Sequence record: CP033547.1
Direction: 5' to 3' (one strand)
DNA: 64,000 bases
Origin: a plasmid
Of this stretch, positions 5,286 to 36,080 are shown in pieces. Position 1 is the stretch's first letter. Every line of letters begins with the position of its first letter. A model generated the notes under the pieces. That model was given only the letters and a program-made list of their open reading frames with translations, was not told the origin of the DNA and did no database searches. The translations under genes and the position numbers were made by a program.

Positions 5286-5336
5286 TTTATGTTAAGTAGA
5301 GACTAAAAATGCCCTTGATTAAGGGCTTACAAGGGC

Positions 5337-6821
5337 TGTTATTCCCAAGTAGAAATGTCCTACCTAATAACCAAATAGAAATGTCCTATATGGACATTTC
5401 CAAGTCAAGCACAGGATTTAGATTTCGTTGTTCAATCGCTGTTTTCTGTGCTTGTCTACGTGGCATCTTTTGAGAACGATTGCGTTTGTTTTGGTGTTCC
5501 AGTTGTTCATGCTGTTGTTGAATATGTGCCAGCACAGAACCCAAACGTTTATTCTCAACGATCTCTCGCTGGTTGAGCTGACTTAATTTATCAAAGATGC
5601 TGTAATTGATTTTTCTTCCCTGATATTCAATGGCTACAGTACCATCCGGATATTCCAAGGAACTCAAGATACTTGCCGCCCAATCTTTGATTTTCTTCGC
5701 TGTTTTCCAAGATATATACGCATTTATCATAAGTAATCGTCAAGCTGTTCGTGACCCTGCGGGGTTCACGCCAGGTAAAAACATCATCTAATTCTTCGGC
5801 TGTTTCAGCGATAGGCCGATGTAGATCCTTGGAATTAAAAGCCATCTTGGCGAATTTACGATTAAATTGCTCAATAAAAGCACGGCAGCCACTTATTGGC
5901 ATCTGCAATTGAACTGATGCCTTCTAGACGCATCTCCTTAATCAGACGATCCTGAAGTGTTCTATTCGCTCGTTCTACACGACCTTTGGCTTGAGGGGAG
6001 TTAGCGAAAATGATATCGATATTGAGAGTGCTCAGAACACGTCCAAACTGGGTAATCTTGGTGTCTTTCTTGCTACTTTGATTCACCCTAAAAACTGAAT
6101 GTTTGTCACTGTAAAATGCCAATGGCTTACCATGCTGTTCGATATATAAACGTGTCGAAATCATATAGTCAAAGGCTGACTCTGACGCACAGAAGCGTAA
6201 ATGCTGCAATTTTCCTGTGGCATCATCGATGAATACTAGCAGACAGCATTTAGGTGCTCGACCTTCAAACCAATCATGGTGTGAGCCATCAATTTGGATC
6301 AATTCACCATAACAATCTCGGTTATAACGAGGCTGATATGGTCGTTTCAGGCGCTTGCAGCGAGGGATCCATAAATCGGCTGCAATCATCCAAGGAACGC
6401 AGGGTTTCTACTGAAAGATCGAATCCATGCACGGTGGTGAGCTTTTCATGCGCTAAAGTGGGTCCGAAACCATAAAGTTGATCTGAAACAATATTGAGAC
6501 ACTTAAGTCTGAGTTCTTCAGGAAGTTTAGAATTGCTGATTTGGCCACGACCGGCATGGGCTAATGCAGCGGGACCTTGAGCTTTGTATTTCTGCAGTAA
6601 GCGTCTGATGTGACGTTCTGAGATATGAAGTAGCTGAGCAGCCTGGGATTGAGTTATACGTTGATCACAGATTTCTTGCAAGACCGACAATCGTTTAAGT
6701 TCTTTATCCGACATAGACACCAACATATCAAACCGTCCGCTAAGGAAATTGCAAAAGCGCATATTCTAAAAGCGGACATTTTTACTTTGGAGAAACCGGA
6801 CATTTCTATTTTGGGCTTACA
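5337..6821 (-). mobile_element. IS copy A (ISNCY/IS1202-group-like, ~1485 bp), transposase split into 4 ORFs (5386..6762), flanked by 5-bp duplication AGGGC
   Basis: Ends TGTTATTCCCAAGTAGAAATGTCC (5337) and GGACATTTCTATTTTGGGCTTACA (6821), shared with copies at 14854 and 21647; AGGGC at 5332-5336 and 6822-6826. Confidence 0.8.
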
Positions 6822-6826
6822 AGGGC

Positions 6827-6854
6827 ATTTTGTATAAGGTGTATTATGTTAATT
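6827..6854. other. pdif site (XerC-spacer-XerD): ATTTTGTATAA GGTGTA TTATGTTAATT
   Basis: 11-6-11 dif-like architecture; immediately follows TSD of IS copy A. Confidence 0.8.
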
Positions 6855-6916
6855 TTAGAATTTCTTCATTAGATAATTTTTGATAAGCTAAATCCATTAG
6901 GACTAATTAAGTAAAT

Positions 6917-7733
6917 ATGAGCAATTGGGTCAATGTCACACAGGATAAGTCTACAGGTATAGAACTAATTCATGCCCACTTCAAAGGCTTTGCATACGAT
7001 CCTCATCTACACTCAAGTTATCTTATAGGGGTAACAGAGTTAGGACATCAACAATTCAATTGTAGAAAAAAAAAATTATTGATAGCTATCAAGGTCAAAC
7101 TTTCATGCTTGAACCTGAAGAAGTTCATGATGGTAATGCACCAGATCCTCTCGGCTTCACTTATAAAATGATGCATTTAGATCCAGCATGGTTAAAAAAA
7201 AAGCTATGAAGGAATATTTAATGAGCCTATCGAACTTGCTATCGAATCAACCCTACGTTCTGATCCTCAACTTTCACATTTGATACTTTCAACCTACAAT
7301 ATATTGAATAACAATGAATCTCAATTGATGAAAGATACGTATTTAGATCTTTTATTAGAAAACTTAGTAAATAAAAAAATTTTATATAAACGTGAAAAGT
7401 CTATCCAGACATTACCTAATATTGCATTAAAGCTAAAAGAAATTTTACATGAAAGTCTCTTTCATGATTTAGACTTACAAACACTCTCAACATTGGTGAA
7501 AACAGATCGTTTTTATATTAACCGTGTATTTAAAAAAACTTTAACTGTTCTCCACATCAATATCTGATCCAACTCCGTTTAAATAAGGCAAAAGAATTGT
7601 TAAGAAAAGGATTATCAGCAACAACTGTTGCTTCATATCTTTGTTTTTCTGATCAAAGTCATCTAGGTCGATGGTTTAAACGTTGTTATGGCATAACATT
7701 GAATCAATATCAAAAGCGTGCACAAATGTTCTA
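6917..7733 (+). pseudogene. araC1: AraC-family transcriptional regulator (araC1 of the blaOXA-58 region), multiple frameshifts at A-runs (7070-7079, 7194-7203)
   Basis: N-terminal cupin-like MSNWVNVTQDKSTGIELIHAHFKGFAYDPHLHSSYLIGVTELG...; C-terminal HTH ...LKRCYGITLNQYQKRAQMF in other frames. Confidence 0.6.
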
Positions 7734-7789
7734 GATATATCTTGAAGATATTTATCAAACTAGCCAAATAGTTTATTAATTTTTGGATT

Positions 7790-8399
7790 TTATTTTGGAA
7801 ACGATTTTAGCTTTTTGTGCCTTTTCTTTTGTTGCATCAATTACTCCTGGACCAACCAATTTCCTTATTCTTAGTACAAGTCATCAATTCAGTATTAAAA
7901 AACATTAGGCTTAATCTTCGGTGGAAGTATTGGTGCTGCATCATTAGTCTTAATTACAGGACTTGGAATTGGTACAACACTCAATGAATACCCCAAGATT
8001 CAATTAATATTAAGTTTCACTGGCGGCATTTGGTTAAGCTATATTGGATGGAAAATTTTTAATTATAGACCTGATCTAGAATCTAAAATCCAAAATCAAA
8101 ATAAGAAAAATGGTTTTTTTACAGGCTTCTTTTTACAGTTTATCAACCCTAAAAGCTGGTTGATGGCTATTGCTGTTATTACTGTTTATACAGCACAACT
8201 AGCTAACTACTATCAGTCACTCATTCTATTTTCATTCATCTTTATGCTGATTTCTCTACCTTGTTTATTTATTTGGGCTTATTTAGGAAAAATCACAAAA
8301 AAAATACTTTCTACAGCTCATCATATGGTGCTCTTTAATCGAGTATTAGGTACTGTTTTACTTATTTCAGTATGGTATCCAATATTGCATGCTATTTAA
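7790..8399 (+). pseudogene. lysE: LysE/RhtB-family amino-acid exporter (lysE of blaOXA-58 region), frameshifted
   Basis: Hydrophobic ORFs 7790.. and 8160..8399 (MAIAVITVYTAQLANYYQSLILFSFIFML...) typical LysE translocator; ends at pdif. Confidence 0.55.
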
Positions 8400-8421
8400 C
8401 ATAATGGGCGTTATACGAAAT
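8394..8421. other. pdif site (XerD-spacer-XerC): ATTTAACATAA TGGGCG TTATACGAAAT
   Basis: dif-like 11-6-11. Confidence 0.8.
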
Positions 8422-8632
8422 GCAGCACAAATTGAAAAATATAAAAATCAAAAACTTATGATATAAATTATTTGCTCGATGATGTTCAAAAGCCGACTTG
8501 GAAACAAGTCGGCTTTTTTTATGAGCAGTTTTGATAGTTCTTGCCAATAAATTTGACTAAAAATTACGCTTCTCAACTTGAGTTATACAATTTTGTGATA
8601 CATTATTGTATATACAAATTTGAATGTTTTTT

Positions 8633-8921
8633 ATGGAACAGTATTTTTGAATGGGATGAGGCTAAGAATCGAAAGAATCAGAAAAAGCATGATATCTCTT
8701 TCGAAACTGCAAGCCTTGTTTTTGAAGATCCATTACGGATCTCAATCCAAGACAGACATACCGATGGTGAAGAACGTTGGCAAACCATTGGACGAGTTAA
8801 AGGCGTACTAATGTTATTGGTGGCTCACACCATTTTTGATGAAGATGACTGTGAAATCATACGAATCATTAGTGCAAGGCAAGTGACTAAAGCGGAGCGA
8901 AACAAATATGAGCATGGTTAG
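8633..8921 (+). pseudogene. brnT: BrnT toxin (DUF497), +1 frameshift in T-run just after ATG
   Basis: ...FEWDEAKNRKNQKKHDISFETASLVFEDPLRISIQDRHTDGEERWQTIGRV... BrnT signature; ATG at 8633 out of frame by one T. Confidence 0.7.
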
Positions 8922-9249
8922 ATACTCACGCAAAGAGCTGAATGAGAAATTTGGTGAGAAGCAAGATGCTGAAATTCAACGCTTGCTTGCTAAAGGCACG
9001 GTTCCTGATGATCAGCTAGATCTATCAGATATTCCTGAAATTACCGATTGGAGCAGTGCTGTACGCCAAAATCAATTTTACCGCCCAGTGAAGCAACAAA
9101 CTTCAATTCGGTTAGATGCTGATGTACTTGCTTGGTTCAAAGCACAAGGCAAAGGTTATCAAACACGAATGAATGAAATTTTACGGGATGCTATGCTGAA
9201 AGAATTAAAAATCATCAATAAAAATGGGAGCTTAAGCTCCCATTTTTGA
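8908..9249 (+). CDS. brnA: BrnA antitoxin
   Basis: 113-aa ORF overlapping brnT end; ...YQTRMNEILRDAM... ; stop abuts pdif. Confidence 0.7.
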   Translation: MSMVRYSRKELNEKFGEKQDAEIQRLLAKGTVPDDQLDLSDIPEITDWSSAVRQNQFYRPVKQQTSIRLDADVLAWFKAQGKGYQTRMNEILRDAMLKELKIINKNGSLSSHF

Positions 9250-9276
9250 CTTCGCATAACGCCCATTATGTTAATT
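9249..9276. other. pdif site (XerC-spacer-XerD): ACTTCGCATAA CGCCCA TTATGTTAATT
   Basis: dif-like 11-6-11. Confidence 0.8.
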
Positions 9277-9309
9277 TTAGTTTTCCTTAATACGACAAAA
9301 ATATCTACT

Positions 9310-9841
9310 TCATTTCACGAGAATTTCTTTTGCTAAAAGTTCTTCTTTCGTTACACCGAAATATCTTATTTCTAATTTAGGCCTGCCTAACATCTTTAAA
9401 AGATTGTTTTCATCATTTATATTTTTTATAGCTTTGCTTACACAATCAATTACGTCATTAGTTTTAGAAATAGCTTCTTTTTCAGATACTTGATCGCTTA
9501 CTTTTCGAGATATTAAGTCATCAAAATATATCCTATATTCTTCACAAACTAGATAAAAATAAGGGTCTAATCTATCTAAATCATATTCAGATTCAAAGGG
9601 TTTACGATCTAATAAATCTTTTTCAGGATAAATAATCAATTGTCCTGCATCGAACCAAAACTCCACAGAAAAAATTATCAAACTCAATTCCATTTAAATC
9701 ATTACTAAAATTTTGAAAATACTGTAATAAAAGATTTTCTATATCCTCTAAAAACTCTTTATTCTTAATATCAAATATTAAAGATTCATTAGAAATAGCT
9801 TTGATACAATCTTCTTGAATATCTAACCCCTTTAAAGTCAT
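9310..9841 (-). pseudogene. Hypothetical protein (~175 aa) forming its own dif module; frameshift in A-run near 9665
   Basis: ORFs 9623..9841 and 9310..9693 contiguous on minus strand; no recognisable domain. Confidence 0.35.
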
Positions 9842-9890
9842 TTTTACTCCATTTAAATTTTTAGGTTTTGGTGCATTAAGAATTTTGATT

Positions 9891-9918
9891 AACTTAACAT
9901 AATGGCGGTTATACGAAA
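9891..9918. other. pdif site (XerD-spacer-XerC): ACTTAACATAA TGGCGG TTATACGAAAT
   Basis: dif-like 11-6-11. Confidence 0.8.
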
Positions 9919-9989
9919 TTCACCGTTTCGAGCCCCAAATATCAAGTTTATTTCTTGCATAAATGTATCCTATAGGATACATTCTACTT

Positions 9990-10292
9990 ATGTACTCAAT
10001 ATATACCACTGAAGTCTTTGATGACTGGTTCACCAAGTTAAAAGACCAGCAGGCAAAAAGACGCATACAAGTCCGAATTGATCGGGTTGAAGATGGAAAC
10101 TTTGGAGATACTGAGCCGGTCGGTGAAGGTGTTTCTGAATTACGTTTCTTCTTTGGGCCAGGCTATAGGATTTATTACTGCAAGCAAGGGCAAAGGGTTG
10201 TTATTCTTTTAGCAGGCGGAGATAAGTCTACGCAAAGTAAAGATATAAAACTTGCCCTGCAATTGGCACAAGATTTAGAGGAGGAGCTATAA
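9990..10292 (+). CDS. RelE/ParE-superfamily addiction-module killer protein (HigB-like); alternative start 9963
   Basis: MYSIYTTEVFDDWFTKLKDQQAKRRIQVRIDRVEDGNFGDTEPVGEGVSELRFFFGPGYRIYY...; immediately followed by HTH antidote. Confidence 0.65.
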   Translation: MYSIYTTEVFDDWFTKLKDQQAKRRIQVRIDRVEDGNFGDTEPVGEGVSELRFFFGPGYRIYYCKQGQRVVILLAGGDKSTQSKDIKLALQLAQDLEEEL

Positions 10293-10574
10293 ATGGCTAT
10301 TAAACTTCGCAAATGGGACAGTGCTGAGCATCTTAAAACAGAGGATGATATGCAGGCTTACTTACAAGCATGTATTGAAGAATCTAATGGCGATGCCGCA
10401 TTCATTGCAAAGGCTTTAGGTAACATTGCAAAAGCTAAAGGAATGGCTCAATTATCACGAGATACAGGCTTAGGCCGAGAAAGTCTTTATAAAGCACTTT
10501 CTGGTGATGTTAACCCTAGTTTTGATACTGTGATTAAAGTTGTAAAAGCACTGAATTTACGCTTAGCAATTTAA
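10293..10574 (+). CDS. Addiction-module antidote, HTH DNA-binding protein (HigA-like)
   Basis: MAIKLRKWDSAEHLKTEDDMQAYL...SRDTGLGRESLYKALSGDVNPSFDTVIKVVKALNLRLAI. Confidence 0.65.
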   Translation: MAIKLRKWDSAEHLKTEDDMQAYLQACIEESNGDAAFIAKALGNIAKAKGMAQLSRDTGLGRESLYKALSGDVNPSFDTVIKVVKALNLRLAI

Positions 10575-10615
10575 AAAGTTATTAAAAAATGGAGCTTTAG
10601 GCTCCATTTTTTTAA

Positions 10616-10643
10616 TTCTCGTATAAGGTGTATTATGTTAATT
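10616..10643. other. pdif site (XerC-spacer-XerD): TTCTCGTATAA GGTGTA TTATGTTAATT
   Basis: dif-like 11-6-11; preceded by terminator GGAGCTTTAGGCTCC. Confidence 0.8.
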
Positions 10644-10653
10644 TTAGAAATTC

Positions 10654-11079
10654 TTAATTTCCATCTATCCAAACTTGCTTGATCCAATCTGCTAAATCTT
10701 CCCACTGCTCATCGCTATATCCATCTGCTGTCCAATATCTAATTTTATGATTAGGAGATAGGCAATAATAACTACCATTATCTTCACAAATAGGTAGCCA
10801 ATCTTCTGGCAGACCTTGCTCCCTAGCATCATTTAATATCTGAGATAGCCCTCGATAGCATTCTTTCTCATCTGTAAGAGACGCTAATTCAATTGTTCCA
10901 TAAAAGATATTGCTAATCTCTTTCAAAACTTTTTTATAATCTTTTGGAAAAATAAAACCTATTTTTCGTTCATAAGCAGATATGAAAATATCATCAGGTA
11001 GTTCTATGTTTAGACGACTATTCCCAGATAGTTCTTTTAATTCTTGAATAATGTTATCAAGCTTATTTTGCATATACAT
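10654..11079 (-). CDS. SMI1/KNR4 (SUKH-superfamily) family protein
   Basis: 141-aa ORF ...DEQWEDLADWIKQVWIDGN with SUKH-like features; alone between two pdif sites. Confidence 0.5.
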   Translation of the reverse strand: MYMQNKLDNIIQELKELSGNSRLNIELPDDIFISAYERKIGFIFPKDYKKVLKEISNIFYGTIELASLTDEKECYRGLSQILNDAREQGLPEDWLPICEDNGSYYCLSPNHKIRYWTADGYSDEQWEDLADWIKQVWIDGN

Positions 11080-11110
11080 TCTGCTCTATCGCATTAAAGT
11101 TCTTACTACA

Positions 11111-11138
11111 ATTTAACATAATGGCTGTTATGCGAAAC
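11111..11138. other. pdif site (XerD-spacer-XerC): ATTTAACATAA TGGCTG TTATGCGAAAC
   Basis: dif-like 11-6-11. Confidence 0.8.
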
Positions 11139-11211
11139 GAGATCTACCAGCTCTCGTTTTTGTTATGGAAACTGCTAAAATTCAAATACGCCATTGACGT
11201 ATAAAGAGTCC

Positions 11212-11533
11212 ATGTTATTTATTGAAACCAGCATCTTTACCAAGCAAATTAAAGACCTTGTATCTGATGAGGAATATCGTCAACTTCAGCAAGATCTTTT
11301 TGGTACAGCCTGATAGAGGTGACCTAATCAAGAATGGCGGTGGTATTCGCAAAGTACGTTGTGCTCAAGGTAACAAAGGGAAAAGTGGTGGGATACGGGT
11401 GATTTATTATTGGGTCACCGAGGATGATCAGATCTTTTTCTTAGTGGCTTATCCAAAATCAGTAAAAGATAATTTAACAGATAAGGAAACCGCCATTCTG
11501 CACCAACTCGTGAAGGAGCAATTTCATGGATAA
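11212..11533 (+). pseudogene. higB: HigB toxin (RelE/ParE superfamily), +1 frameshift in T-run near 11290
   Basis: MLFIETSIFTKQIKTLVSDEEYRQLQQDLL / VQPDRGDLIKNGGGIRKVRCAQGNKGKSGGIRVIYYWVTEDDQIFFLVAYPKSVKDNL... Confidence 0.7.
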
Positions 11534-11798
11534 CAACTTATTTGATGACTTGGTTGCTTCAATCAAAGAAGCTGGAGCTATCAAACGTAAAGAAGTTAAA
11601 GCAAGCCGAGTTACAGAACTCGAATTGCCTGATATTAAAGAAGTACGTGAAAAAACTGGCTTGAGCCAAAATGAATTTGCTGCACGTCTACATATTAGCC
11701 CCCGTACCCTGCAAAATTGGGAACAGGGACGACGCTATCCAACTGGACCAGCAGCTACATTGATTCGAATTTTAGATGCTCACCCAAGCCTTATTTGA
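11526..11798 (+). CDS. higA: HigA antitoxin (XRE-family HTH)
   Basis: ...KTGLSQNEFAARLHISPRTLQNWEQGRRYPTGPAATLIRIL...; overlaps higB stop. Confidence 0.75.
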   Translation: MDNNLFDDLVASIKEAGAIKRKEVKASRVTELELPDIKEVREKTGLSQNEFAARLHISPRTLQNWEQGRRYPTGPAATLIRILDAHPSLI

Positions 11799-11838
11799 AA
11801 AATTACTTAAAAAATGGGAGCTTAAGGCTCCCATTTTT

Positions 11839-11866
11839 ATTTCGTATAAGGTGTATTATGTTAATT
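11839..11866. other. pdif site (XerC-spacer-XerD): ATTTCGTATAA GGTGTA TTATGTTAATT (perfect consensus)
   Basis: dif-like 11-6-11; preceded by terminator GGGAGCTTAAGGCTCCC. Confidence 0.85.
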
Positions 11867-12290
11867 TTAGAAAATCTTCACTACTATTATTTTAAAATAA
11901 GCCTTATATCCAAGCATAAAACAAGGTTGTCTAGACTTCTTTTAACAGTAAAGTTATCATAAAACTGAATTTTTATTTTTTAGGTAAGTTTATGCATTCT
12001 ATCCGCATTCGTTAAGACACAACTATTTGCATAGTGACACTATTTTATAATGGTGGGCTTTTGTTGTGTCTTTAAGAATATATGCGGATATATAAAGTAA
12101 AAGTATGCTTAATTTATAAGTATGCTTTTAGTGCATAGTTTCCAGTTATAACTTAATTGACTAGCTATTTGTCCACCCTGTGGATGAATAGCTTTTTTTT
12201 GGGAGGACACTGTGATGCTAGCTTTTGTTTTTCACCTAAATCCTGTTTGCTGCATAAAAAATTTCAAGAGCTAAACAGGAGTAAATAAAA

Positions 12291-13765
12291 ATGAGTTTAA
12301 TTATTAAAGCGAGAAACATACGCTTGGATTATGCTGGGCGTGATGTTTTGGATATTGATGAATTGGAAATTCACTCTTATGACCGTATTGGTCTTGTGGG
12401 TGATAACGGAGCAGGAAAGAGTAGTTTACTCAAAGTACTTAATGGCGAAATTGTTTTAGCCGAAGCGACATTACAGCGTTTTGGTGATTTTGCACATATC
12501 AGCCAACTGGGCGGAATCGAAATAGAAACGGTCGAAGACCGGGCAATGTTATCTCGCCTTGGTGTTTCCAATGTACAAAACGACACAATGAGTGGCGGAG
12601 AGGAAACTCGTGCAAAAATTGCTGCCGCATTTTCCCAACAAGTACATGGCATTCTAGCGGATGAACCAACCAGCCACCTTGATCTCAATGGAATAGATCT
12701 ACTTATTGGTCAACTTAAAGCATTTGATGGAGCATTACTTGTTATCAGTCATGACCGATATTTTCTTGATATGGTTGTAGACAAGATATGGGAGTTAAAA
12801 GACGGTAAAATTACGGAATATTGGGGTGGTTACTCGGATTACTTGCGTCAAAAAGAAGAAGAGCGACAACACCAAGCCGTAGAATATGAGCTGATGATGA
12901 AGGAACGGGAGCGATTAGAATCTGCTGTGCAAGAAAAACGCCAGCAAGCTAATCGATTAGACAATAAGAAAAAAGGAGAAAAATCCAAAAACTCTACCGA
13001 AAGTGCTGGACGACTTGGGCATGCAAAAATGACTGGCACCAAGCAAAGAAAACTGTATCAGGCAGCTAAGAGTATGGAAAAGCGTTTGGCTGCATTAGAA
13101 GATATTCAAGCACCAGAGCATTTGCGTTCTATTCGTTTTCGTCAAAGTTCAGCCCTAGAACTGCACAATAAGTTCCCGATTACGGCAGATGGTCTGAGCT
13201 TAAAATTTGGTAGCCGTACTATCTTTGATGACGCTAACTTTATAATACCGCTTGGCGCTAAAGTCGCTATAACTGGATCGAATGGAACAGGGAAAACGTC
13301 CTTGTTAAAAATGATATCAGAACGTGCTGATGGATTAACCATATCTCCAAAAGCTGAAATTGGCTACTTTACACAAACAGGATATAAATTTAACACGCAT
13401 AAATCTGTGCTCTCCTTTATGCAGGAAGAGTGCGAGTACACAGTTGCGGAAATTCGTGCAGTATTGGCTTCAATGGGGATCGGAGCGAATGATATTCAAA
13501 AAACTTATCCGACTTATCGGGAGGTGAAATCATCAAACTGCTTTTATCCAAAATGCTTTTAGGAAAATATAATATTTTGCTTATGGATGAACCATGAAAC
13601 TATCTTGACCTAAAAAGTATTGCCGCATTAGAAACAATGATGAAGTCCTATGCAGGAACTATTATCTTCGTATCTCATGACAAGCAATTGGTCGATAATA
13701 TTGCTGACATTATCTACGAGATCAAAGACCACAAAATCATCAAGACTTTTGAGAGAGATTGTTAA
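12291..13765 (+). pseudogene. msr(E): ABC-F ribosomal protection protein Msr(E) (macrolide resistance), disrupted: 1-bp insertion near 13510 and in-frame TGA at ~13596 in LLMDEP-G motif
   Basis: [50 protein letters not shown]... two ABC domains; C-terminus [38 protein letters not shown]...KTFERDC readable in other frame. Confidence 0.9.
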
Positions 13766-13820
13766 TGATAGCCAATCTAATCCGAACATTAATTATTGAA
13801 CTCTTTAAAGGAAATTAAAA

Positions 13821-14708
13821 ATGACAATTCAAGATATTCAATCACTTGCTGGAAGCACACGGCTTGTTGCTTACGGACAAAATGAATTTCAAATGAAATG
13901 GGCATTGATTTTAAGGTCGTTTTTGCTCTTGATACAAAGGGGCAACAATGGTTGCTGCGTATTCCTCGTCGTGATGGCATGAGGGAACAAATCAAGAAAG
14001 AAAAACGCATTTTAGAATTGGTAAAAAAACATCTTTCTGTAGAGGTTCCTGATTGGAGAATTTCATCTACAGAATTAGTGGCTTATCCCATACTTAAAGA
14101 TAATCCTGTTTTTAAATTTGGATGCTGAAACCTATGAAATAATTTGGAATATGGACAAAGATAGCCCGAAATACATAACATCTTTGGCAAAAACCTTATT
14201 TGAAATCCATAGTATTCCTGAAAAAGAAGTTCGGGAAAATGATTTGAAAATTATGAAACCTTCAGATTTAAGACCTGAAATAGCAAACAATTTGCAGTTA
14301 GTAAAATCTGAAATTGGTATAAGTGAGCAATTGGAAACCCGCTACAGAAAATGGTTGGATAATGATGTTCTATGGGCAGATTTCACCCAATTTATACATG
14401 GCGATTTATATGCTGGGCATGTACTAGCTTCAAAGGATGGAGCTGTTTCAGGCGTTATTGATTGGTCAACAGCCCATATAGATGACCCAGCGATTGATTT
14501 TGCTGGGCATGTAACTTTGTTTGGAGAAGAAAGCCTCAAAACTCTAATCATCGAGTATGAAAAACTAGGGGGTAAAGTTTGGAATAAACTATATGAACAG
14601 ACTTTAGAAAGAGCAGCGGCCTCTCCTTTGATGTATGGTTTATTTGCCTTAGAAACTCAAAATGAAAGCCTTATCGTTGGAGCAAAAGCTCAGTTGGGAG
14701 TTATATAA
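13821..14708 (+). pseudogene. mph(E): Macrolide 2'-phosphotransferase Mph(E), two homopolymer frameshifts (~13885 and ~14108)
   Basis: MTIQDIQSLAGSTRLVAYGQNEF.../...GIDFKVVFALDTKGQQWLLRIPRRDGMREQIKKEKRILELV.../...HGDLYAGHVLASKDGAVSGVIDWSTAHIDDPAIDFAGH... Confidence 0.9.
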
Positions 14709-14819
14709 TTTAAAAATATGATTGCTGAGAACTGCCTTGTTTTGAAACTTGGTTGGCTTTAATTAGTTTTTAGTATTCTTTATAGAAAATGCCTCGATCA
14801 AGGGGCATTTCTAACAATC

Positions 14820-14847
14820 ATTTAACATAAAATTTCTTATGTGAAGT
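14820..14847. other. pdif site (XerD-spacer-XerC): ATTTAACATAA AATTTC TTATGTGAAGT
   Basis: dif-like 11-6-11; closes the 2.95-kb msr(E)-mph(E) dif module (11867-14819). Confidence 0.75.
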
Positions 14848-14853
14848 AACCTG

Positions 14854-16340
14854 TGTAAGCCCAAAATAGAAATGTCCGGTTTCTCCAAAGTAAAAAATGT
14901 CCGCTTTTAGAATATGCGCTTTTGCAATTTCCTTAGCGGACGGTTTGATATGTTGGTGTCTATGTCGGATAAAGAACTTAAACGATTGTCGGTCTTGCAA
15001 GAAATCTGTGATCAACGTATAACTCAATCCCAGGCTGCTCAGCTACTTCATATCTCAGAACGTCACATCAGACGCTTACTGCAGAAATACAAAGCTCAAG
15101 GTCCCGCTGCATTAGCCCATGCCGGTCGTGGCCAAATCAGCAATTCTAAACTTCCTGAAGAACTCAGACTTAAGTGTCTCAATATTGTTTCAGATCAACT
15201 TTATGGTTTCGGACCCACTTTAGCGCATGAAAAGCTCACCACCGTGCATGGATTCGATCTTTCAGTAGAAACCCTGCGTTCCTTGGATGATTGCAGCCGA
15301 TTTATGGATCCCTCGCTGCAAGCGCCTGAAACGACCATATCAGCCTCGTTATAACCGAGATTGTTATGGTGAATTGATCCAAATTGATGGCTCACACCAT
15401 GATTGGTTTGAAGGTCGAGCACCTAAATGCTGTCTGCTAGTATTCATCGATGATGCCACAGGAAAATTGCAGCATTTACGCTTCTGTGCGTCAGAGTCAG
15501 CCTTTGACTATATGATTTCGACACGTTTATATATCGAACAGCATGGTAAGCCATTGGCATTTTACAGTGACAAACATTCAGTTTTTAGGGTGAATCAAAG
15601 TAGCAAGAAAGACACCAAGATTACCCAGTTTGGACGTGTTCTGAGCACTCTCAATATCGATATCATTTTCGCTAACTCCCCTCAAAGCCAAAGGTCGTGT
15701 AGAACGAGCGAATAGAACACTTCCAGGATCGTCTGATTAAGGAGATGCGTCTAGAAGGCATCAGTTCAATTGCAGATGCCAATAAGTGGCTGCCGTGCTT
15801 TATTGAGCAATTTAATCGTAAATTCGCCAAGATGGCTTTTAATTCCAAGGATCTACATCGGCCTATCGCTGAAACAGCCGAAGAATTAGATGATGTTTTT
15901 ACCTGGCGTGAACCCCGCAGGGTCACGAACAGCTTGACGATTACTTATGATAAATGCGTATATATCTTGGAAAACAGCGAAGAAAATCAAAGATTGGGCG
16001 GCAAGTATCTTGAGTTCCTTGGAATATCCGGATGGTACTGTAGCCATTGAATATCAGGGAAGAAAAATCAATTACAGCATCTTTGATAAATTAAGTCAGC
16101 TCAACCAGCGAGAGATCGTTGAGAATAAACGTTTGGGTTCTGTGCTGGCACATATTCAACAACAGCATGAACAACTGGAACACCAAAACAAACGCAATCG
16201 TTCTCAAAAGATGCCACGTAGACAAGCACAGAAAACAGCGATTGAACAACGAAATCTAAATCCTGTGTTTGACTTGGAAATGTCCATATAGGACATTTCT
16301 ATTTGGTTATTAGGTAGGACATTTCTACTTGGGAATAACA
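14854..16340 (+). mobile_element. IS copy B (same ISNCY/IS1202-like element), transposase in 4 fragments (14914..16291); 6 bp (AACCTG) from XerC arm; no TSD detectable
   Basis: Ends TGTAAGCCCAAAATAGAAATGTCC (14854) and GGACATTTCTACTTGGGAATAACA (16340). Confidence 0.8.
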
Positions 16341-16391
16341 ACAGATGCTTTTTAAATTGTGTTATAATTCAGTATGCTAACACCTAGTTTA

Positions 16392-16425
16392 CAGCCCACT
16401 CACCCTCGAGTGGGCTTTTTTTATG
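16392..16425 (+). terminator. Rho-independent terminator hairpin CCCACTCACCCTCGAGTGGGCTTTTTTT
   Basis: Perfect stem CCCACTC/GAGTGGG followed by T7 run. Confidence 0.5.
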
Positions 16426-16726
16426 ATTTTTCACGTTCCACGCCTATTCTTTAATCAATGTTCCACGGTTTTATTTAATGTTGCTGAACAATCAATGGAT
16501 ACCAGTAAAGCCCTTTAGGTCTTCTGTTGCTTCAAATATAAAGTCTCTACGATCAAGGATTAGACAATCTTTATTGTGTCGTCTGACTGATCTTGTGGCT
16601 TTGCTAATATCATGGCAATCCCAAGATTTGGGATAATACTTTATTAAAGAACGGACAATCTTGTTTTTATATTCTGAGGTTTTCTATAATCTTAATTATG
16701 TTACATAATCAAGATTGATAATAAAA

Positions 16727-17290
16727 ATGACGCAAAATAAGCATGGTGGTGCACGCAAAGGTTCTGGCCGTCCTTTTTGTCTATAACGAACCGACCAAGG
16801 TCATTCGGGTGCCAGAGTCTCGTGTATTGGAAATCAAGAAATACCTGAAAAAAAATGACACTCCAAAGTTTAACGATATTTCCTCTATTACATTGCTTGG
16901 AGACAAAAACACATTATGAGATTCCTGTTGCTTTGCAAAAAGTTGCTGCAGGCTTCCCTTCCCCTGCTCAGGACTATATCGATAAGACCCTTGATCTAAA
17001 CGAGTTTCTTATTCAAAACCAACAGGCAACCTTTATCGTTGAAGTGGAATCCTTATCCATGCGTGATGCAGGGATTGATCTGAATGACAAGCTAATCGTT
17101 GACCGTAGTATTGAAGCCAAGCATGGGGATATTGTTCTGGCATTGATAGACAATGATTTTACGATTAAACGTTTAATGATTGAGGGTAATCAATGCTGGT
17201 TGCAGGCGGCTAATCCTGATTTTGCTGATATCTATTTGAAAGATAATCAAACCATGCTGATTTGGGGTGGGGCAAGTATGTACAGGATGC
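16727..17290 (+). pseudogene. umuD: UmuD-like S24 LexA-family peptidase (UmuDAb-like), frameshifted N-terminus
   Basis: MTQNKHGGARKGSGRP... ; ...VAAGFPSPAQDYIDKTLDLNEFLIQNQQATFIVEVESLSMRDAGIDLNDKLIVDRSIEAKHGDIVLALIDNDFTIKRLMIEGN... Confidence 0.7.
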
Positions 17291-17741
17291 GGTCATACGT
17301 TTACGAGCAGACGCTTCCTTATGTGGATGTGTCATTGCTTTTGTGCAATCGAATCCTTTTGATTCAAAGGTTCCCTATTACAGTAAATCGTTGGCTTTTG
17401 AGTTTCCTGAACCGACGGATTGTGTTTTGGATCTGATTAAAACAGCTATGCAACTGCTGGAACACATTTATAAATCTGACGTGAAATATAAAAAGTGTGG
17501 TGTAATTCTGACGGATTTAATTGCTAAGCAGCGCTTTACTCCTGACCTGCTGACGGACCACAGCCAGCGTGAAAGTAATGAAAGCCTCATGCAGACTTTA
17601 GAAGCGGTACAGGCGAGATATGGGAAAACTAAATTAGCTGTTGGCAGCTGCTACTTGCCACAACGAAAGTGGTCCATGAATCGTACCCATTTGACCCAAA
17701 ACTATTTCAGCTGGCAGGGATTATTAAAGATCAGCCATTAA
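17262..17741 (+). pseudogene. umuC: Truncated umuC (C-terminal ~160 aa of Y-family DNA polymerase V), fused directly after umuD
   Basis: ...KYKKCGVILTDLIAKQRFTPDLLTDHSQRESNESLMQTLEAVQARYGKTKLAVGS... aligns to C-terminus of full umuC at 41371..42668. Confidence 0.65.
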
Positions 17742-17994
17742 ATTAATTAGCCTCACCTATTTGGTTTAAGTCAGCTTAATGAAGAACTCGACACATAAGC
17801 CGACACAGGCTTGATCCTCAGTCAACCATTTAACAACGTAAGTATGTTGTTTGGGATCCATGTAACACCTCTCGAGGAAAAGGTGGTTAGTAATAAAACT
17901 CTGCTCAAGCAAATTTATTGGGTTAACTGTCAGTTTTCACCATCTCATGTCCTTTATTTCTAGAACATTCTAGACTTTTCTCGACCTAGAATTT

Positions 17995-18189
17995 TTATTC
18001 TTTAAAGGTGTCATTCAACGCCTGTTGCACAGCATCAATACGTAATTTGCAGGCTTTATAGGCAGTCATGGACTCTTCAACGATCGCCATAAGGTTATCA
18101 ATATCCGGTTCTTCCTGAGATTCAAGAAATTCGGCATTTTTCTTGAGAATTTCATAACCTTTCTTGAAACTTAGTTCTTCATTGTTCAT
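17995..18189 (-). CDS. xseB: Exodeoxyribonuclease VII small subunit
   Basis: MNNEELSFKKGYEILKKNAEFLESQEEPDIDNLMAIVEESMTAYKACKLRIDAVQQALNDTFKE. Confidence 0.8.
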   Translation of the reverse strand: MNNEELSFKKGYEILKKNAEFLESQEEPDIDNLMAIVEESMTAYKACKLRIDAVQQALNDTFKE

Positions 18190-19446
18190 GTGCGTTTACC
18201 TGTGTCACGGTGGCATCAATGGTGCCATCCTTAAGTTCAATCTGTAATTGCTGGTCAGTAATCTGCTGTATGGAACGGATGGCTTTGCCTTGGCTACGGA
18301 CAATTGCATAGCCCTTGGCCATCACATTACGTGGATTCTGTAGCAAGGTTTCCCTCATCAATGACTCTACCTGCTGTGAAGCTAGTTTAATCTGTTGTTG
18401 AGCAAGATACTTAGTATCACTCTTCAGCATATCAACTCTACGTTGGGCTTCATTGATCTGGTTCTGTGTCAGAGTTTTGATAGTTTTCAGATACTGATCA
18501 CTCTGGCTCTGGTAGGTGATCAACTGGTGCTGTGACAGTAGCTTGATGGTCTGCAAAGCAGTACTAACTTCATTGACTCGCTCCACAATCAGGTTACGGA
18601 TCCCTGCGATCACTTTACTCGGAGTATCAAAGGAACGGTGTGCAATTTCATCCAAAATAGTGTGGTCTTTCTCGTGGCCAATACCGACCCAGATAGGCAC
18701 AGTTCTTTTTACACAGCAGTGCGGCCAGATCATAATCATTCAGGTAAGCTAGGTCATTCACGGCTCCACCACCACGGATAATCACAATAAGGTCTGGTGC
18801 TATCAAGTAATCTTGAGCCCACTGTCTTAAGGCACGGCCCAAAACCTGAATGATGCTGGCAGAAGCAGTATTACCCTGAAAAGTTGCTGAATGATAAACG
18901 AAATGGCAGACACCAGCCTGAGCCAGGGCATCCGCATCTTTTTAAAGTCACCTAACCCTGCAGCATTTTCCGGTGCAATGACCAAGACATTCTGAATATC
19001 AAAGGGTACCGGCAACTGTTTATTGTTATTGAGCAGGCCTTCCTCAGTCAGTCGCAGCAGAATCTGCTGATAGCGTTTGGCGATGTCTCCTAGAGTAAAG
19101 CTAGAGTCGATATCTTCGATATTGACCGAGAAGCCATATTGCGGATCAAATCTAGCTTTGACCTTGATCAGTACATTCAGGTCTTTCGACAGTTCAATAC
19201 CACTTTCTCGTTCAAACTTTAGAACTATTTTTGTGCCGTAAATTTCCAAATGGTGCCTTTACAACTAGCGATCACCTTATGGCTTTCTTCATCTTTCTCA
19301 GCCAACTCAAGATAATAGTGACCGCCTTTAATACTTAAATTACGGATCTCAGCCTTGACCCACACTGCCCCATCAAAAGTCAGATGGATGACTTCCTGTA
19401 CAGTGGCAAGGTATTCACTAAGGCTGAGTTGTTGACGTTCTGACAT
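18179..19446 (-). pseudogene. xseA: Exodeoxyribonuclease VII large subunit, split into 4 ORFs by frameshifts
   Basis: N-terminal OB-fold ORF MSERQQLSLSEYLATVQEVIHLTFDGAVWVKAEIRNLSIKGGHYYLELAEKDEES...; catalytic region ...NDLAYLNDYDLAALLCKKNCAYLGRYWPRERPHY...; C-terminal coiled-coil ORF. Confidence 0.75.
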
Positions 19447-19662
19447 GATGTAAAGGATAGCTAAAATATAAGGAGGTGAGATTTAACCTAATATTGATCA
19501 ATTCTACTGCAAATCAGATGAGTTTATTGCAATTTTGAGAAATGTATAAGTTCTTCTTAGACACCTAGAGTGATCATTGAGATTTTTAGTTTAATTATAC
19601 TTTTATATTAAAATAGATATATAATCAATAAAATCATTATATTTTACTATTTTAATAAAATT

Positions 19663-20967
19663 ATGAAGCAATACTGTACACTGCAAATCTACCAAGACTA
19701 TGAATGGCATGACTGTGCTTTGGTTGAGGTTACGGATGATCAAAATGCTGGATGGCAGGCAGCTACACGTACATCATATTTGTTCGAATATGCTATTTCA
19801 TATATGGATCTAAGAGATGGTCATGCGCTTGCTTATGACTTACCAGTGAACGTTCAAAATAGATTGGAATCAACTTGGCCAGCATTTCTTATGGATCTAT
19901 TACCTCAAGGATACGGCCGCAAAGAATTACTAATACAGCTTGATTTTTCTGAGAATGTTCAGGAACAAGCGGACTGGGCGCTTTTAAAAGCAGGCGCAGG
20001 AAATCCAATTGGGAATCTGCGAGTCAAAGAGGCTCATGAGTGGTTACAAAGTCATTTCCCAAAGCTGCAGAATCAGGGATTTAGCCTAAGCCAAATTATT
20101 GAACGTAAAGAGAAGTTTATTGAATCGCTCGCATCTTATGGACTTTTTATTGCTGGTTCATCTGGTATTCAGGGTGAGTGGCCAAAATTGTTGTTAACAC
20201 AAGGTTATGATGATCTTTTCTATCTAGATCATACTCTTCCAGATGATCAAGTTAAGCAGCATTGGTTGGTTAAATTTAGCCGCGGCAGTGATCAAAATTT
20301 GAATAAAATCCTGATGAACGAAGCTTTGTATATGAAAGTCGCTCAGTACTTGCAACTACGTGTACACCGGGATCTTGAGCTACATGGCAAGACTTTGTTT
20401 ATTCCAAGATTTGATCGCAAAGTAATTAATGGCAAAGTTGAAAGAATTGCTCAGGAAAGCCTTGCATCTCTAGGTGGGAAGGCGGGCTTTGGGGTTAGAA
20501 TGACCCATAATCAAATATGTACCCTGCTTATGGAGGCTTGTACCGAACCAAAGCAGGAAGTATTTGAGTATTTGAAGCGTGATCTCGCAAATGTTGCCTT
20601 AGGCAATAAAGATAACCATACTCGCAATACAGCAATCCAACGCTTCAATAATGGTAAAATTCAGCTCACACCATTATTTGATTTTGCGCCAATGTGGTTA
20701 CATCCTGATGGTATTGCACGTACTACTCGTTGGGAAAGAGATGATCATGGTGGTATGCCACTTTTGAGTTCTGTGATTGAGCAGATAGCTGAAAGCACTT
20801 CGATTGGTCCACAAGAAATTAAAACTTTATTAATTGAACAGTTACCAATTTATCGGGGATTGTTAGAAAAGATGCAGGCTCTTCAAGTAGCGGATGAAAT
20901 TCTGGAAAATAGCCAATATCGAATAATCAATATTTGCCAGCAGTTGGAGGAGATCAGCCATGGATAA
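19663..20967 (+). CDS. HipA-like Ser/Thr kinase toxin (HipA_N + HipA_C)
   Basis: 434 aa; ...DLLPQGYGRKELL..., ...ALGNKDNHTRNTAIQRFNNGKIQLTPLFDFAPM... (HipA catalytic-loop-like). Confidence 0.65.
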   Translation: MKQYCTLQIYQDYEWHDCALVEVTDDQNAGWQAATRTSYLFEYAISYMDLRDGHALAYDLPVNVQNRLESTWPAFLMDLLPQGYGRKELLIQLDFSENVQEQADWALLKAGAGNPIGNLRVKEAHEWLQSHFPKLQNQGFSLSQIIERKEKFIESLASYGLFIAGSSGIQGEWPKLLLTQGYDDLFYLDHTLPDDQVKQHWLVKFSRGSDQNLNKILMNEALYMKVAQYLQLRVHRDLELHGKTLFIPRFDRKVINGKVERIAQESLASLGGKAGFGVRMTHNQICTLLMEACTEPKQEVFEYLKRDLANVALGNKDNHTRNTAIQRFNNGKIQLTPLFDFAPMWLHPDGIARTTRWERDDHGGMPLLSSVIEQIAESTSIGPQEIKTLLIEQLPIYRGLLEKMQALQVADEILENSQYRIINICQQLEEISHG

Positions 20968-21237
20968 ACGTTTTAAACCATTGACCCCTATTCAACAAAT
21001 GGAAAAAAGACTATCTGTGCTTGAAACCATCAATAATCATCCAGACTGGTCTTTTTATCAAGTTGCTCGATTTATTCGAACAGAGCTACATTTAACACTG
21101 AATGATATGGCTAAAATTACTAAGATTGCGCCACAGACACTGCAAAAATGGAGCAACCAGGGAGCAATCCTACTTTGAAATCCATGCAGAAATTACTCGA
21201 TACTTTCGGTTTACAATTACAAATAAAAGTTAAATGA
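20960..21237 (+). pseudogene. Small HTH DNA-binding protein (putative HipB-like partner) overlapping hipA-like stop; frameshift near 21165
   Basis: MDKRFKPLTPIQQMEKRLSVLETINNHPDWSFYQVARFIRTELHLTLNDMAKITKIAPQTLQKWSNQG... then ...PTLKSMQKLLDTFGLQLQIKVK in +1 frame. Confidence 0.5.
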
Positions 21238-21331
21238 TTTTTAATTCTGAGCCATCGGTTTTTCTAAAATCTTATCCGTTTAAGGATACAAAGAGGAAAT
21301 AAACAGGCTCTAGGTTGTTTTATGATTATTT

Positions 21332-21553
21332 TTAGACAAACGACTCCAAAACCTTATGTAGCAAGGGTTTTGTCTCTACAGTAATTAATTTATTTTTGAA
21401 AAAATGGAGTAGAGTGTTTGAAATATGAATAATCGAATTCCGAGTTTCTGTAAGCACAGCAATTTCATCTGCATGTGCTTTATATTCATCTATATTTTCG
21501 AGTAATTCATCCTCTGAGAATGGGAGTTTTTTTTGATTTTCAGTGTCGTTCAT
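21332..21553 (-). CDS. Hypothetical protein (73 aa)
   Basis: ORF only. Confidence 0.25.
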   Translation of the reverse strand: MNDTENQKKLPFSEDELLENIDEYKAHADEIAVLTETRNSIIHISNTLLHFFKNKLITVETKPLLHKVLESFV

Positions 21554-21646
21554 AGAGTCATATCCTGAGAAGTTATTTAGATCATCATAAACCAGACATT
21601 TTTAATGGTGAGAATACAGACACTTTAAATGGTTTCTAACAAGATT

Positions 21647-23130
21647 TGTTATTCCCAAGTAGAAATGTCCTACCTAATAACCAAATAGAAATGTCCTATA
21701 TGGACATTTCCAAGTCAAGCACAGGATTTAGATTTCGTTGTTCAATCGCTGTTTTCTGTGCTTGTCTACGTGGCATCTTTTGAGAACGATTGCGTTTGTT
21801 TTGGTGTTCCAGTTGTTCATGCTGTTGTTGAATATGTGCCAGCACAGAACCCAAACGTTTATTCTCAACGATCTCTCGCTGGTTGAGCTGACTTAATTTA
21901 TCAAAGATGCTGTAATTGATTTTTCTTCCCTGATATTCAATGGCTACAGTACCATCCGGATATTCCAAGGAACTCAAGATACTTGCCGCCCAATCTTTGA
22001 TTTTTCTTCGCTGTTTTCCAAGATATATACGCATTTATCATAAGTAATCGTCAAGCTGTTCGTGACCCTGCGGGGTTCACGCCAGGTAAAAACATCATCT
22101 AATTCTTCGGCTGTTTCAGCGATAGGCCGATGTAGATCCTTGGAATTAAAAGCCATCTTGGCGAATTTACGATTAAATTGCTCAATAAAGCACGGCAGCC
22201 ACTTATTGGCATCTGCAATTGAACTGATGCCTTCTAGACGCATCTCCTTAATCAGACGATCCTGAAGTGTTCTATTCGCTCGTTCTACACGACCTTTGGC
22301 TTGAGGGGAGTTAGCGAAAATGATATCGATATTGAGAGTGCTCAGAACACGTCCAAACTGGGTAATCTTGGTGTCTTTCTTGCTACTTTGATTCACCCTA
22401 AAAACTGAATGTTTGTCACTGTAAAATGCCAATGGCTTACCATGCTGTTCGATATATAAACGTGTCGAAATCATATAGTCAAAGGCTGACTCTGACGCAC
22501 AGAAGCGTAAATGCTGCAATTTTCCTGTGGCATCATCGATGAATACTAGCAGACAGCATTTAGGTGCTCGACCTTCAAACCAATCATGGTGTGAGCCATC
22601 AATTTGGATCAATTCACCATAACAATCTCGGTTATAACGAGGCTGATATGGTCGTTTCAGGCGCTTGCAGCGAGGGATCCATAAATCGGCTGCAATCATC
22701 CAGGAACGCAGGGTTTCTACTGAAAGATCGAATCCATGCACGGTGGTGAGCTTTTCATGCGCTAAAGTGGGTCCGAAACCATAAAGTTGATCTGAAACAA
22801 TATTGAGACACTTAAGTCTGAGTTCTTCAGGAAGTTTAGAATTGCTGATTTGGCCACGACCGGCATGGGCTAATGCAGCGGGACCTTGAGCTTTGTATTT
22901 CTGCAGTAAGCGTCTGATGTGACGTTCTGAGATATGAAGTAGCTGAGCAGCCTGGGATTGAGTTATACGTTGATCACAGATTTCTTGCAAGACCGACAAT
23001 CGTTTAAGTTCTTTATCCGACATAGACACCAACATATCAAACCGTCCGCTAAGGAAATTGCAAAAGCGCATATTCTAAAAGCGGACATTTTTACTTTGGA
23101 GAAACCGGACATTTCTATTTTGGGCTTACA
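21647..23130 (-). mobile_element. IS copy C (same ISNCY/IS1202-like element, 1484 bp), flanked by AAGATT duplication; least damaged copy
   Basis: AAGATT at 21641-21646 and 23131-23136; same terminal sequences as copies A/B. Confidence 0.85.
21696..23071 (-). CDS. IS transposase (~470 aa; N-terminal HTH, DDE/rve integrase core), one frameshift at ~22000 (extra T)
   Basis: MRFCNFLSGRFDMLVSMSDKELKRLSVLQEICDQRITQSQAAQLLHISERHIRRLL...IQIDGSHHDWFEGRAPKCCLLVFIDDATGKL... Confidence 0.8.
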
Positions 23131-23136
23131 AAGATT

Positions 23137-23164
23137 GCTTCACATAAGAGATTTTATGTTAAAT
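23137..23164. other. pdif site (XerC-spacer-XerD): GCTTCACATAA GAGATT TTATGTTAAAT
   Basis: dif-like 11-6-11 immediately after TSD of IS copy C. Confidence 0.7.
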
Positions 23165-23762
23165 GTCTTTTTTCATTGCTCTCTGAACTGTTGCAATACC
23201 TACAAACAAAATAAACGCAATCGTTCTCAAAAGATGCCAAGCAGACGTGCACAGAAAACAGTAATCAAAGAACGAAATCTGAATCCTGTGCTTGACTTGG
23301 AAATGTCTGTATAGGACATTTCTACTTGGGAATAACATCATCATGCTATATAAGTATTTAACCGTATTCTTTTATTTTTTGGCGCACCATGTATATAGAT
23401 ACAAAAAAAAGCAATTATTGGATAAATTAATATAGCTCCACCTGCTCGACCATCTACGGATGGAGATAAGGACATGCTTAAAACAATAAATACAATAAGA
23501 TATAAAATATAACATGTTCCCCAAGTTAATAATCCAAAGAGTATAGGGAAACAAAATTTTGAAATAACTCCAAAGGGCTTCGATCTTTTATAGAGATGCT
23601 TTTCAAAAGATTATTCGAAATATTAACAGCAACAATTGTCATAAATAGATTAAAAAGCAGAAAATAAAGCATACTAAAAATTAAATATGAAAAATAATTT
23701 ATTATATATTAGTTGATTAAATTTAACATTAATTAAAATATACGTTTAAAGATAAGCAATAA

Positions 23763-35746: not shown

Positions 35747-36080
35747 TATGACCTTTTAATGATGGCTAGCATTAAATTTTACACTAAATTTACCGCTAGC
35801 ATCTCTTGGATATTATTTTTCGTATCAGGCAGCACTCTCAAAAGCCGTTTGTTTGGACAGTCCCCATGATCATACACGAGGCAGCTTCAAATACTTATGG
35901 GCCCATCCTATCCAGTTGTATCTTCTTGCATCACATGAATATTGTATACTCATTTTGACTACTTGAAAATTATGGAACAACGTCAATAAAAACAATAACT
36001 CTAGAGTCTTTAGTCGACATTCCTAAAAAGTGAACCGTACCGGGTTTGTCGGAGAGTCAATATTCTGAGAGACTATCCCG

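Follow-up and report, generated by a model that had tools for sequence, protein, structure and literature searches.

Three insertion sequences, very probably ISApi2, placed in one orientation beside the XerC arms of pdif sites in a plasmid

The 64,000-nucleotide stretch of plasmid record CP033547.1 analysed here, referred to as the window, carried three near-identical copies (>99.5% identity) of a 1.48-kb insertion sequence (IS), designated copies A, B and C. In all three, the terminal repeat on the transposase-start side (inverted repeat left, IRL) faced a 28-bp XerC-spacer-XerD recombination site (pdif) at a distance of 5-6 bp from its XerC arm. Taken as a whole, the observations are very probably best explained if the three elements are ISApi2, a member of the IS1202 family that targets the XerC side of these sites in a fixed orientation. 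An earlier note, made from the sequence alone, had placed three copies with shared ends at these positions and strands, with the transposase-start end 5-6 bp from a pdif site in each case; alignment of the copies, reading of the junctions and the match of the sites to a pdif core bore this out.

Results

Placement of the three copies

Copy A was located within the blaOXA-58 dif module, adjoining the pdif upstream of araC1. Its duplication, AGGGC, and the position of its right duplicate, ending immediately before the XerC arm, were as the earlier note had read them, and the sequence of pdif A was found identical but free of the IS in plasmid pOXA58_100004. At copy B the plus strand read TTATGTGAAGT up to position 14847, followed by AACCTG and then by the IRL from 14854, again in agreement with the earlier reading, while the opposite, right inverted repeat (IRR) side read ACAGAT, so that there was no duplication. 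AACCTG is, however, the duplication that bounds the same insertion in two other plasmids. For copy C, the start of the XerC arm at 23137 was confirmed, whereas the 6-bp duplication AAGATT proposed previously probably does not stand. In pOXA58_005069 this insertion is flanked on either side by the 5-bp AATCT, and the extra A at position 23131 is missing; the extra A is probably a homopolymer error, and the true duplication and offset of copy C would then be 5 bp, AGATT. The target duplications were consequently AGGGC for copy A, AACCTG for copy B (in the sister plasmids) and AGATT, or AAGATT as sequenced, for copy C, all of them 5-6 bp. The coordinates of the elements, duplications and sites are collected in Table 1.

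The window contained 11 matches to the pdif core YRYATAA-N6-TTATGTKAA, where shuffled sequences predicted 0.00, and all three of the sites next to the IS were among these matches. A looser scan returned 12 sites. With 12 sites, the probability that a single random insertion would fall at an offset of 5-6 bp, on the XerC side and in the right orientation is about 24/128000, or 1.9e-4, and that of three such placements is about 7e-12. Chance placement of the three copies is excluded.

Table 1. Coordinates and strands of the three elements, their target duplications and the adjacent sites in the window
Feature	Coordinates	Strand	Remarks
ISApi2 copy A	5337..6821	-	1485 bp as sequenced; reference 1482 bp
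ISApi2 copy B	14854..16340	+	1487 bp as sequenced; IRR-side duplication lost
ISApi2 copy C	21647..23130	-	1484 bp as sequenced; stacked, with pdif C on one side and the older remnant on the other
AGGGC, left duplicate of copy A	5332..5336	.	5-bp target duplication
AGGGC, right duplicate of copy A	6822..6826	.	5-bp spacer, IRL to XerC arm
pdif A	6827..6854	+	XerC arm ATTTTGTATAA, spacer GGTGTA, XerD arm TTATGTTAATT
pdif B	14820..14847	-	XerC arm ACTTCACATAA, spacer GAAATT, XerD arm TTATGTTAAAT; end of msr(E)-mph(E) module
AACCTG, copy B, XerC arm to IRL	14848..14853	.	6-bp spacer; one of the two original duplicates
IRL remnant of older, different IS1202-family IS	21577..21641	-	65 bp; that IS about 70% identical to ISApi2 overall
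AGATT, left duplicate of copy C	21642..21646	.	
AAGATT, copy C, IRL to XerC arm	23131..23136	.	AGATT plus one extra A
pdif C	23137..23164	+	XerC arm GCTTCACATAA, spacer GAGATT, XerD arm TTATGTTAAAT

Identity and structure of the element

The element matched 260 plasmid records, all from Acinetobacter, the best matches being 1482-bp copies at 99.9% identity that were annotated as an ISNCY family transposase. Its identity to copies of 1482 bp in CP033536, CP051863 and MK134375 was 99.8-99.9%, and the name ISApi2 was adopted because Table 4 of Harmer, Pong and Hall 2023 (PMC10132070) gives it to the IS in these three records; the copy in CP033536 was confirmed beside the pdif tabulated there. ISApi2 is 1,482 bp long and targets the C side of pdif (PMC13141974). 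It belongs to cluster 1 of the ISAjo2 type; this type, also called the ISAba32 subgroup, is part of the IS1202 family, which is still filed as ISNCY in annotation pipelines. Other members of the cluster, ISAba71, ISAjo2 and ISAso2, have the same architecture and targets as the window's element but were only about 90% identical to it. These relatives occupy the pdif sites of copy A (blaOXA-58/araC1) and copy B (mphE) in other plasmids, where the junctions matched at about 88-89% and 97-98%, respectively, and the oxa58 and msrE-mphE modules are listed among the targets of ISAba71 (PMC10132070, Table 6).

The IRL was TGTAAGCCCAAAATAGAAATGTCC and the IRR was TGTTATTCCCAAGTAGAAATGTCC. The two were identical at 19 of 24 positions, with the outer bases TGT...ACA, and fit the 24-26 bp repeats with 19-20 identities that characterize the subgroup. 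The inner repeat had a second copy at both ends. Beside the IRL, the sequence ...AAATAGAAATGTCC was followed by 9 bp (GGTTTCTCC) and then by AAAGTAAAAATGTCC, while beside the IRR, GGACATTTCTA occurred twice in the layout GGACATTTCTATTTGG-TTATTAGGTA-GGACATTTCTACTTGGGAATAACA; subterminal copies 7-10 bp from each terminal repeat are likewise a feature of the subgroup. Over their full length, all three copies aligned with a reference copy of 1482 bp; what exceeded the 1481-1482 bp of the subgroup was accounted for by 1-nt insertions in homopolymers.

The transposase of the reference copy was encoded by one continuous open reading frame (ORF) of 441 amino acids as annotated, or 457 when counted from the first ATG. 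The intact 441-residue protein matched NF033594 (ISNCY family transposase) with 483.6 bits, the cut-off being 250, and contained helix-turn-helix (HTH) matches at the N terminus, to HTH_28, HTH_23 and HTH_29, and an rve_3 core. A phmmer search against PDB sequences gave no match. The earlier note had proposed a transposase of about 470 amino acids with HTH and DDE domains; the domains were recovered, the size was overestimated and the ORFs are frameshifted as sequenced.

The placement of the element agrees with what is published. ISAjo2-type IS, ISApi2 included, are 1481-1482 bp long with TGT/ACA ends, internal copies of the repeats and a transposase of 441-457 amino acids, and insert in one orientation beside pdif and dif, 5 bp away on the XerC side, generating 5-bp duplications (PMC10132070). 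Siguier et al. (bioRxiv 10.1101/2022.12.17.520857; Plasmid 2023) gave the distance as 5-6 bp, equal to the length of the duplication, and described plasmids with several copies at separate sites, repeated insertion at a single site in which the proximal copy is the most recent, partial copies retaining the IRL, and copies without duplications that were ascribed to recombination. In 2026 the targeting of the C side of pdif by ISApi2 was treated as established (PMC13141974). The window copies resembled published ISApi2 in 1) the length of 1482 bp, once corrected, 2) the TGT/ACA ends, the repeats identical at 19 of 24 positions and their subterminal copies, 3) the HTH and DDE transposase of 441-457 amino acids, 4) the 5-6 bp spacing from the XerC arm and the duplications, and 5) the presence of copies at several pdif sites, the stacking and the occasional loss of a duplication. 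Oriented placement beside XerC arms has been known since 2022-2023 (PMC10132070; 10.1101/2022.12.17.520857), the earlier note was right that IS1202-group elements have been reported next to dif-like sites in Acinetobacter plasmids, and every feature of the window lies within the published descriptions.

History of each insertion

In the plasmid collection, the closest relatives covered 74-77% of the 21-kb stretch that was queried. The empty site of copy A, with the flanks joined and a single AGGGC, was present at 100% identity in the plasmids listed as matches, upstream of araC1 in a blaOXA-58 setting, and 106 records covered at least 80% of it. The junction created by copy A was found in no other plasmid of the collection, although relatives about 89% identical occupy the same site elsewhere. 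That the insertion is private among the plasmids searched implies recent activity.

The empty site of copy C was found at 100% identity in five plasmids, including pOXA58_100004, and the occupied junction was common only to pOXA58_005069. The empty site read remnant-AGATT-XerC arm, the remnant being a 65-bp IRL fragment that is 94% identical to the corresponding end of the second IS in pOXA58_005069. Prior to the arrival of copy C, 5 bp separated this remnant from the pdif C XerC arm, so that pdif C has been used repeatedly and copy C is stacked on what is left of an older IS. On the XerD side of the same pdif, positions 23207-23337 held a 131-bp IRR-end fragment of a related ISAjo2-type IS, 89% identical to ISApi2 and 98% identical to copies at other loci, which was conserved in pOXA58_005069 and pOXA58_100004. 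This fragment has kept only its IRR, whereas the published partial copies keep the IRL.

No joined empty site was found for copy B. Its left flank was nonetheless present in msr(E)-mph(E) modules that lack the IS, as ...GAAGT-AACCTG-AATGCAGC, the empty site in pACI-c6b4 read ...GAAGTAACCTGAATGCAGC, and in p1VB280820 and pE47_001 the insertion was bounded by AACCTG on both sides. The duplications in these two plasmids and the flank of the IS-free modules indicate that copy B originated as an ordinary insertion with a 6-bp duplication, and that the flank on its IRR side was exchanged later. An inversion among the three copies was ruled out as the cause of the missing duplication since copies A and C retain their own matching duplications. 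In pOXA58_005069 the corresponding region consisted of ISApi2, ACAGA, a second (cluster-2) IS of 1481 bp that is about 70% identical to ISApi2, and ACAGC-TTTTT, while the right flank of copy B in the window read ACAGA-TG-CTTTTT and joined the umuD region. The comparison suggests that the second IS was lost almost precisely.

The interval between mphE and umuD existed in three states in three sister plasmids (window 16341-16348; L001 8200-9695; L081 15343-15400). In pOXA58_005069 it contained ISApi2 and the complete second IS, in pOXA58_100004 the sequence pdif-AACC was fused to a second IS truncated at its 5' end, and in the window it read ISApi2-ACAGA-TG-C with 2 nt remaining of the second IS. 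These states represent deletions with endpoints at or near IS termini.

Because uninterrupted target sites exist elsewhere for copies A, B and C, the three insertions are independent events. The IS always lay inside the dif module, just within the bounding XerC arm, and four plasmids, differing in size and species, had the mphE-pdif/ISApi2 junction of copy B at 99.4% identity, which is compatible with the IS moving along with the msr(E)-mph(E) module. The earlier suggestion that the IS spreads together with dif modules is thus plausible, with msr(E)-mph(E) as an example.

Coding state of the three copies

As sequenced, the transposase ORF was broken by frameshifts in all three copies. The copies differed from one another at seven positions of 1-nt homopolymer indels and by one substitution and at no other position. 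Compared with the 1482-bp reference, the three copies together had ten 1-nt insertions at seven short-homopolymer sites plus the one substitution; copy A, for example, was 99.8% identical to the reference with three 1-nt insertions. A programmed frameshift was ruled out by the single continuous ORF of the reference copy.

One interpretation is that the frameshifts are real, in which case the copies would be dead pseudogenes and their placement would reflect past rather than current activity. Each copy does have 2-5 frameshifting insertions, and the insertion at reference position 1162 (TTCC-T-TGG) is common to all three. We consider this explanation unlikely, for several reasons. Apart from the one substitution, the differences were all single-nucleotide insertions in short homopolymers. 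The adjacent backbone showed the same pattern, with 6 indels and 0 mismatches over 4.4 kb relative to the sister plasmid pOXA58_005069. The msr(E), mph(E) and blaOXA-58 genes of the window matched their family models only partly, which fits truncation by the same kind of frameshift damage, and the insertion of copy A is private among the plasmids searched. The frameshifts are therefore most likely assembly errors, the signature of an uncorrected error-prone assembly and not of decay, and in the plasmid itself the three copies are probably active and undamaged.

Compared with near-identical plasmids, the whole window showed many homopolymer indels of one base, for example in 5337-6821, 12291-14708, 16855-17741 and 18706-21443, which split the three transposase genes and, probably, others too. 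The extra T in the context TTCC-T-TGG was seen again at position 430 in two copies, and this recurrence suggests a systematic base-calling error at CCTGG.

Junctions in database genomes

A scan for the exact IRL, with one genome per species, yielded 84 junctions, and the flanks of 81 could be used. Of these 81, 35 had a pdif at 5 bp (34 distinct targets) and 18 had one at 6 bp (16 distinct targets). In two more the pdif was at 8 or 11 bp through (GAT)n expansion, and five had the XerC arm at 5 bp next to a spacer or XerD arm that was damaged. Fourteen junctions abutted, at 5-6 bp, the end of another element of the IS1202 family, three adjoined a degenerate dif-like site and four had no recognisable site. 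The strict definition, a pdif at exactly 5 or 6 bp, was thus satisfied by 53 of the 81. The earlier note had suggested that the flanks of database copies be tabulated, and these copies do not for the most part lie away from Xer sites. Together with the empty sites, the 53 junctions uphold its proposal that XerC/XerD sites are targeted, and site-specific, oriented targeting of the XerC side by this IS group is well supported by the sequence comparisons.

The adjacency could in principle reflect descent instead of targeting, if one ancestral IS inserted beside a pdif and recombination, Xer-mediated or homologous, then spread the IS and XerC arm as a unit. At least four plasmids do have the junction of copy B, and the exchange of its far flank shows that recombination moves such junctions. 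Descent is highly improbable as a general explanation, however, given that the XerC arms, spacers and 5-6 bp linkers differ among the three copies, that each of them has, elsewhere, an uninterrupted target in which the duplicated bases occur once, and that 34 different targets were represented in the survey at 5 bp and 16 at 6 bp. Least probable of all is random insertion followed by selection for harmless intergenic insertions beside pdif: these sites do lie between modules, where insertions are likely neutral, and 4 of the 81 surveyed copies were at sites without a recognisable dif, but selection cannot yield a fixed distance of 5-6 bp, one orientation throughout and insertion on the XerC side only, to which all three window copies conform at a chance probability of about 7e-12.

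Among the copies of ISApi2 proper (at least 98% identity), a spacing of 6 bp was used about as often as 5 bp, whereas Harmer et al. reported essentially 5-bp duplications. The duplication of the CP033536 copy, for instance, is given as ATAGC in the table of PMC10132070 and was read here as 6 bp, GCTATT, on both sides. The 6-bp duplications agree with the 5-6 bp of Siguier et al.

Several individual junctions deserve description. Three (L073, L022 and L059) had one and the same pdif (ATTTCGCATAA-GAGATT-TTATGTTAAGT), from which the IS was separated by GATGA, GATGATGA or GATGATGATGA; expansion of the triplet has widened the gap between IS and XerC arm to 8 or 11 bp. In eight (L064, L046 and L017/L026/L053/L055/L065/L067) the IRL met the IRL tip of another IS1202-family element across 5 bp with no pdif between them, and these head-to-head pairs contrast with the head-to-tail stacks predicted by simple successive targeting. 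The insertions at L009, L030 and L075 adjoined degenerate dif-like sequences with a XerD-like arm TTACGTTAA(A/G), which may be weak secondary Xer-like targets; L009 was a complete copy in the A. nosocomialis chromosome with the 6-bp duplication GTTCAT. The exact IRL also occurred in short contigs from genomes or MAGs labelled Clostridium, Bacteroidia, Ureibacillus, Anaerocolumna, Actinoplanes and Flavobacterium (L008, L019, L024, L045, L051, L057 and L073), which are probably mis-binned or contaminant since the IS is otherwise confined to Acinetobacter.

Possible scars of earlier occupancy

The IS-free target of copy A (window 5323-5336) read GGGCTTACA-AGGGC-XerC arm, in which the 9-mer is identical to the tip of the IRL and stands exactly 5 bp from the arm. 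The canonical empty flank of the blaOXA-58/araC1 pdif was AGGGC-TTACA-AGGGC-XerC arm. The 9-mer may be the scar of an earlier copy that was deleted via GGGC microhomology. The alternative that GGGCTTACA to the left of copy A (5323-5331) is the remnant of a second IS that arose with copy A was ruled out because it belongs to the widespread IS-free sequence. The far junction of copy B (ACAGA-TG-C) similarly looks like the near-precise loss of a neighbouring IS. Two further readings are suggested, tentatively and with the odds against them. The XerC-side flanks of pdif sites may hold a readable record of past occupancy and loss of IS1202-family elements, and in ISApi2 proper, unlike its relatives, staggers of 6 bp and of 5 bp may be about equally frequent. 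A scan of metagenomes for the scar-free ancestor found none, with a positive control that itself matched only 2 metagenome contigs.

Discussion

Proposed mechanism

A single transposase with an HTH and a DDE (RNase H-fold) domain would presumably bind the 24-bp terminal repeats and the subterminal copies of the inner repeat. The element integrates through a staggered cut of 5 or 6 bp, 5-6 bp outside the XerC arm of a pdif or dif, with the IRL always towards the arm; the junctions show this oriented integration, a duplication of matching length and the preservation of the 11-6-11 site. The literature points to recognition of site-bound XerC (or XerC/D), or of the architecture of the bound site, and not of the DNA sequence alone, as is suggested by the variation in sequence of the targeted sites, seen here too. 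Published work also raises the possibility that transposition proceeds by copy-out-paste-in through a circular intermediate. A promoter at the circle junction (-35 in the IRR, -10 in the IRL) was sought by eye and nothing convincing was seen.

There are parallels with Tn7, in which TnsB acts and TnsD directs insertion to attTn7. Both Tn7 and ISApi2 insert with site and orientation specificity beside a conserved, protein-bound site that is left intact, and both have TGT/ACA ends, several transposase-binding repeats per end (putative in ISApi2) and a 5-bp duplication. The fold of the ISAjo2-type transposase has been reported to be TnsB/MuA-like (PMC10132070). Unlike Tn7, ISApi2 has one protein, without equivalents of TnsA, TnsC and TnsD, and its target is a host recombinase site, not glmS.

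Several points weigh against our interpretation, 1) the name ISApi2 derives from identity to the copies named in PMC10132070, 2) the interaction between transposase and XerC is a proposal of PMC10132070 and of Siguier et al., and no later experimental paper on Xer-dependent recognition was found in the literature searched, 3) the frameshifts might in principle be genuine inactivating mutations, 4) four of the 81 surveyed junctions had no recognisable dif-like site and three had only a degenerate one, so that targeting is strong and not absolute, and 5) the XerC arms at sites B and C deviate from the consensus at 3-4 of 11 positions.

Other features of the window

Downstream of pdif C, at 24291 to about 29000 on the minus strand, was an anti-phage operon of the cyclic oligonucleotide-based anti-phage signalling system (CBASS) type. 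By synteny with pOXA58_100004, its parts were a ThiF/E1-like Cap2, a Mov34/JAB Cap3, a DncV-like nucleotidyltransferase and a phospholipase effector. In this assembly Cap2 was encoded by a split ORF. The window also contained three further repeat families (31364-32364 and 36077-37053; 32725-33805 and 56440-57520; 2693-3424 and 59804-60535), two of them direct or inverted at 88-92% identity and one an inverted pair at 77%. The latter overlaps with the ORF at 2700-3422; at this position IS1008 is found in the sister plasmid pOXA58_100004.

Significance

The window adds one plasmid example to those described, with one copy of ISApi2 newly inserted at the blaOXA-58/araC1 pdif, another that is stacked and a third that was rearranged. 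By homing to XerC/XerD sites, ISApi2 marks dif modules and becomes part of them in the resistance plasmids of Acinetobacter, and genes such as blaOXA-58 and msr(E)-mph(E) lie where its copies provide the homology for rearrangement of the plasmids.

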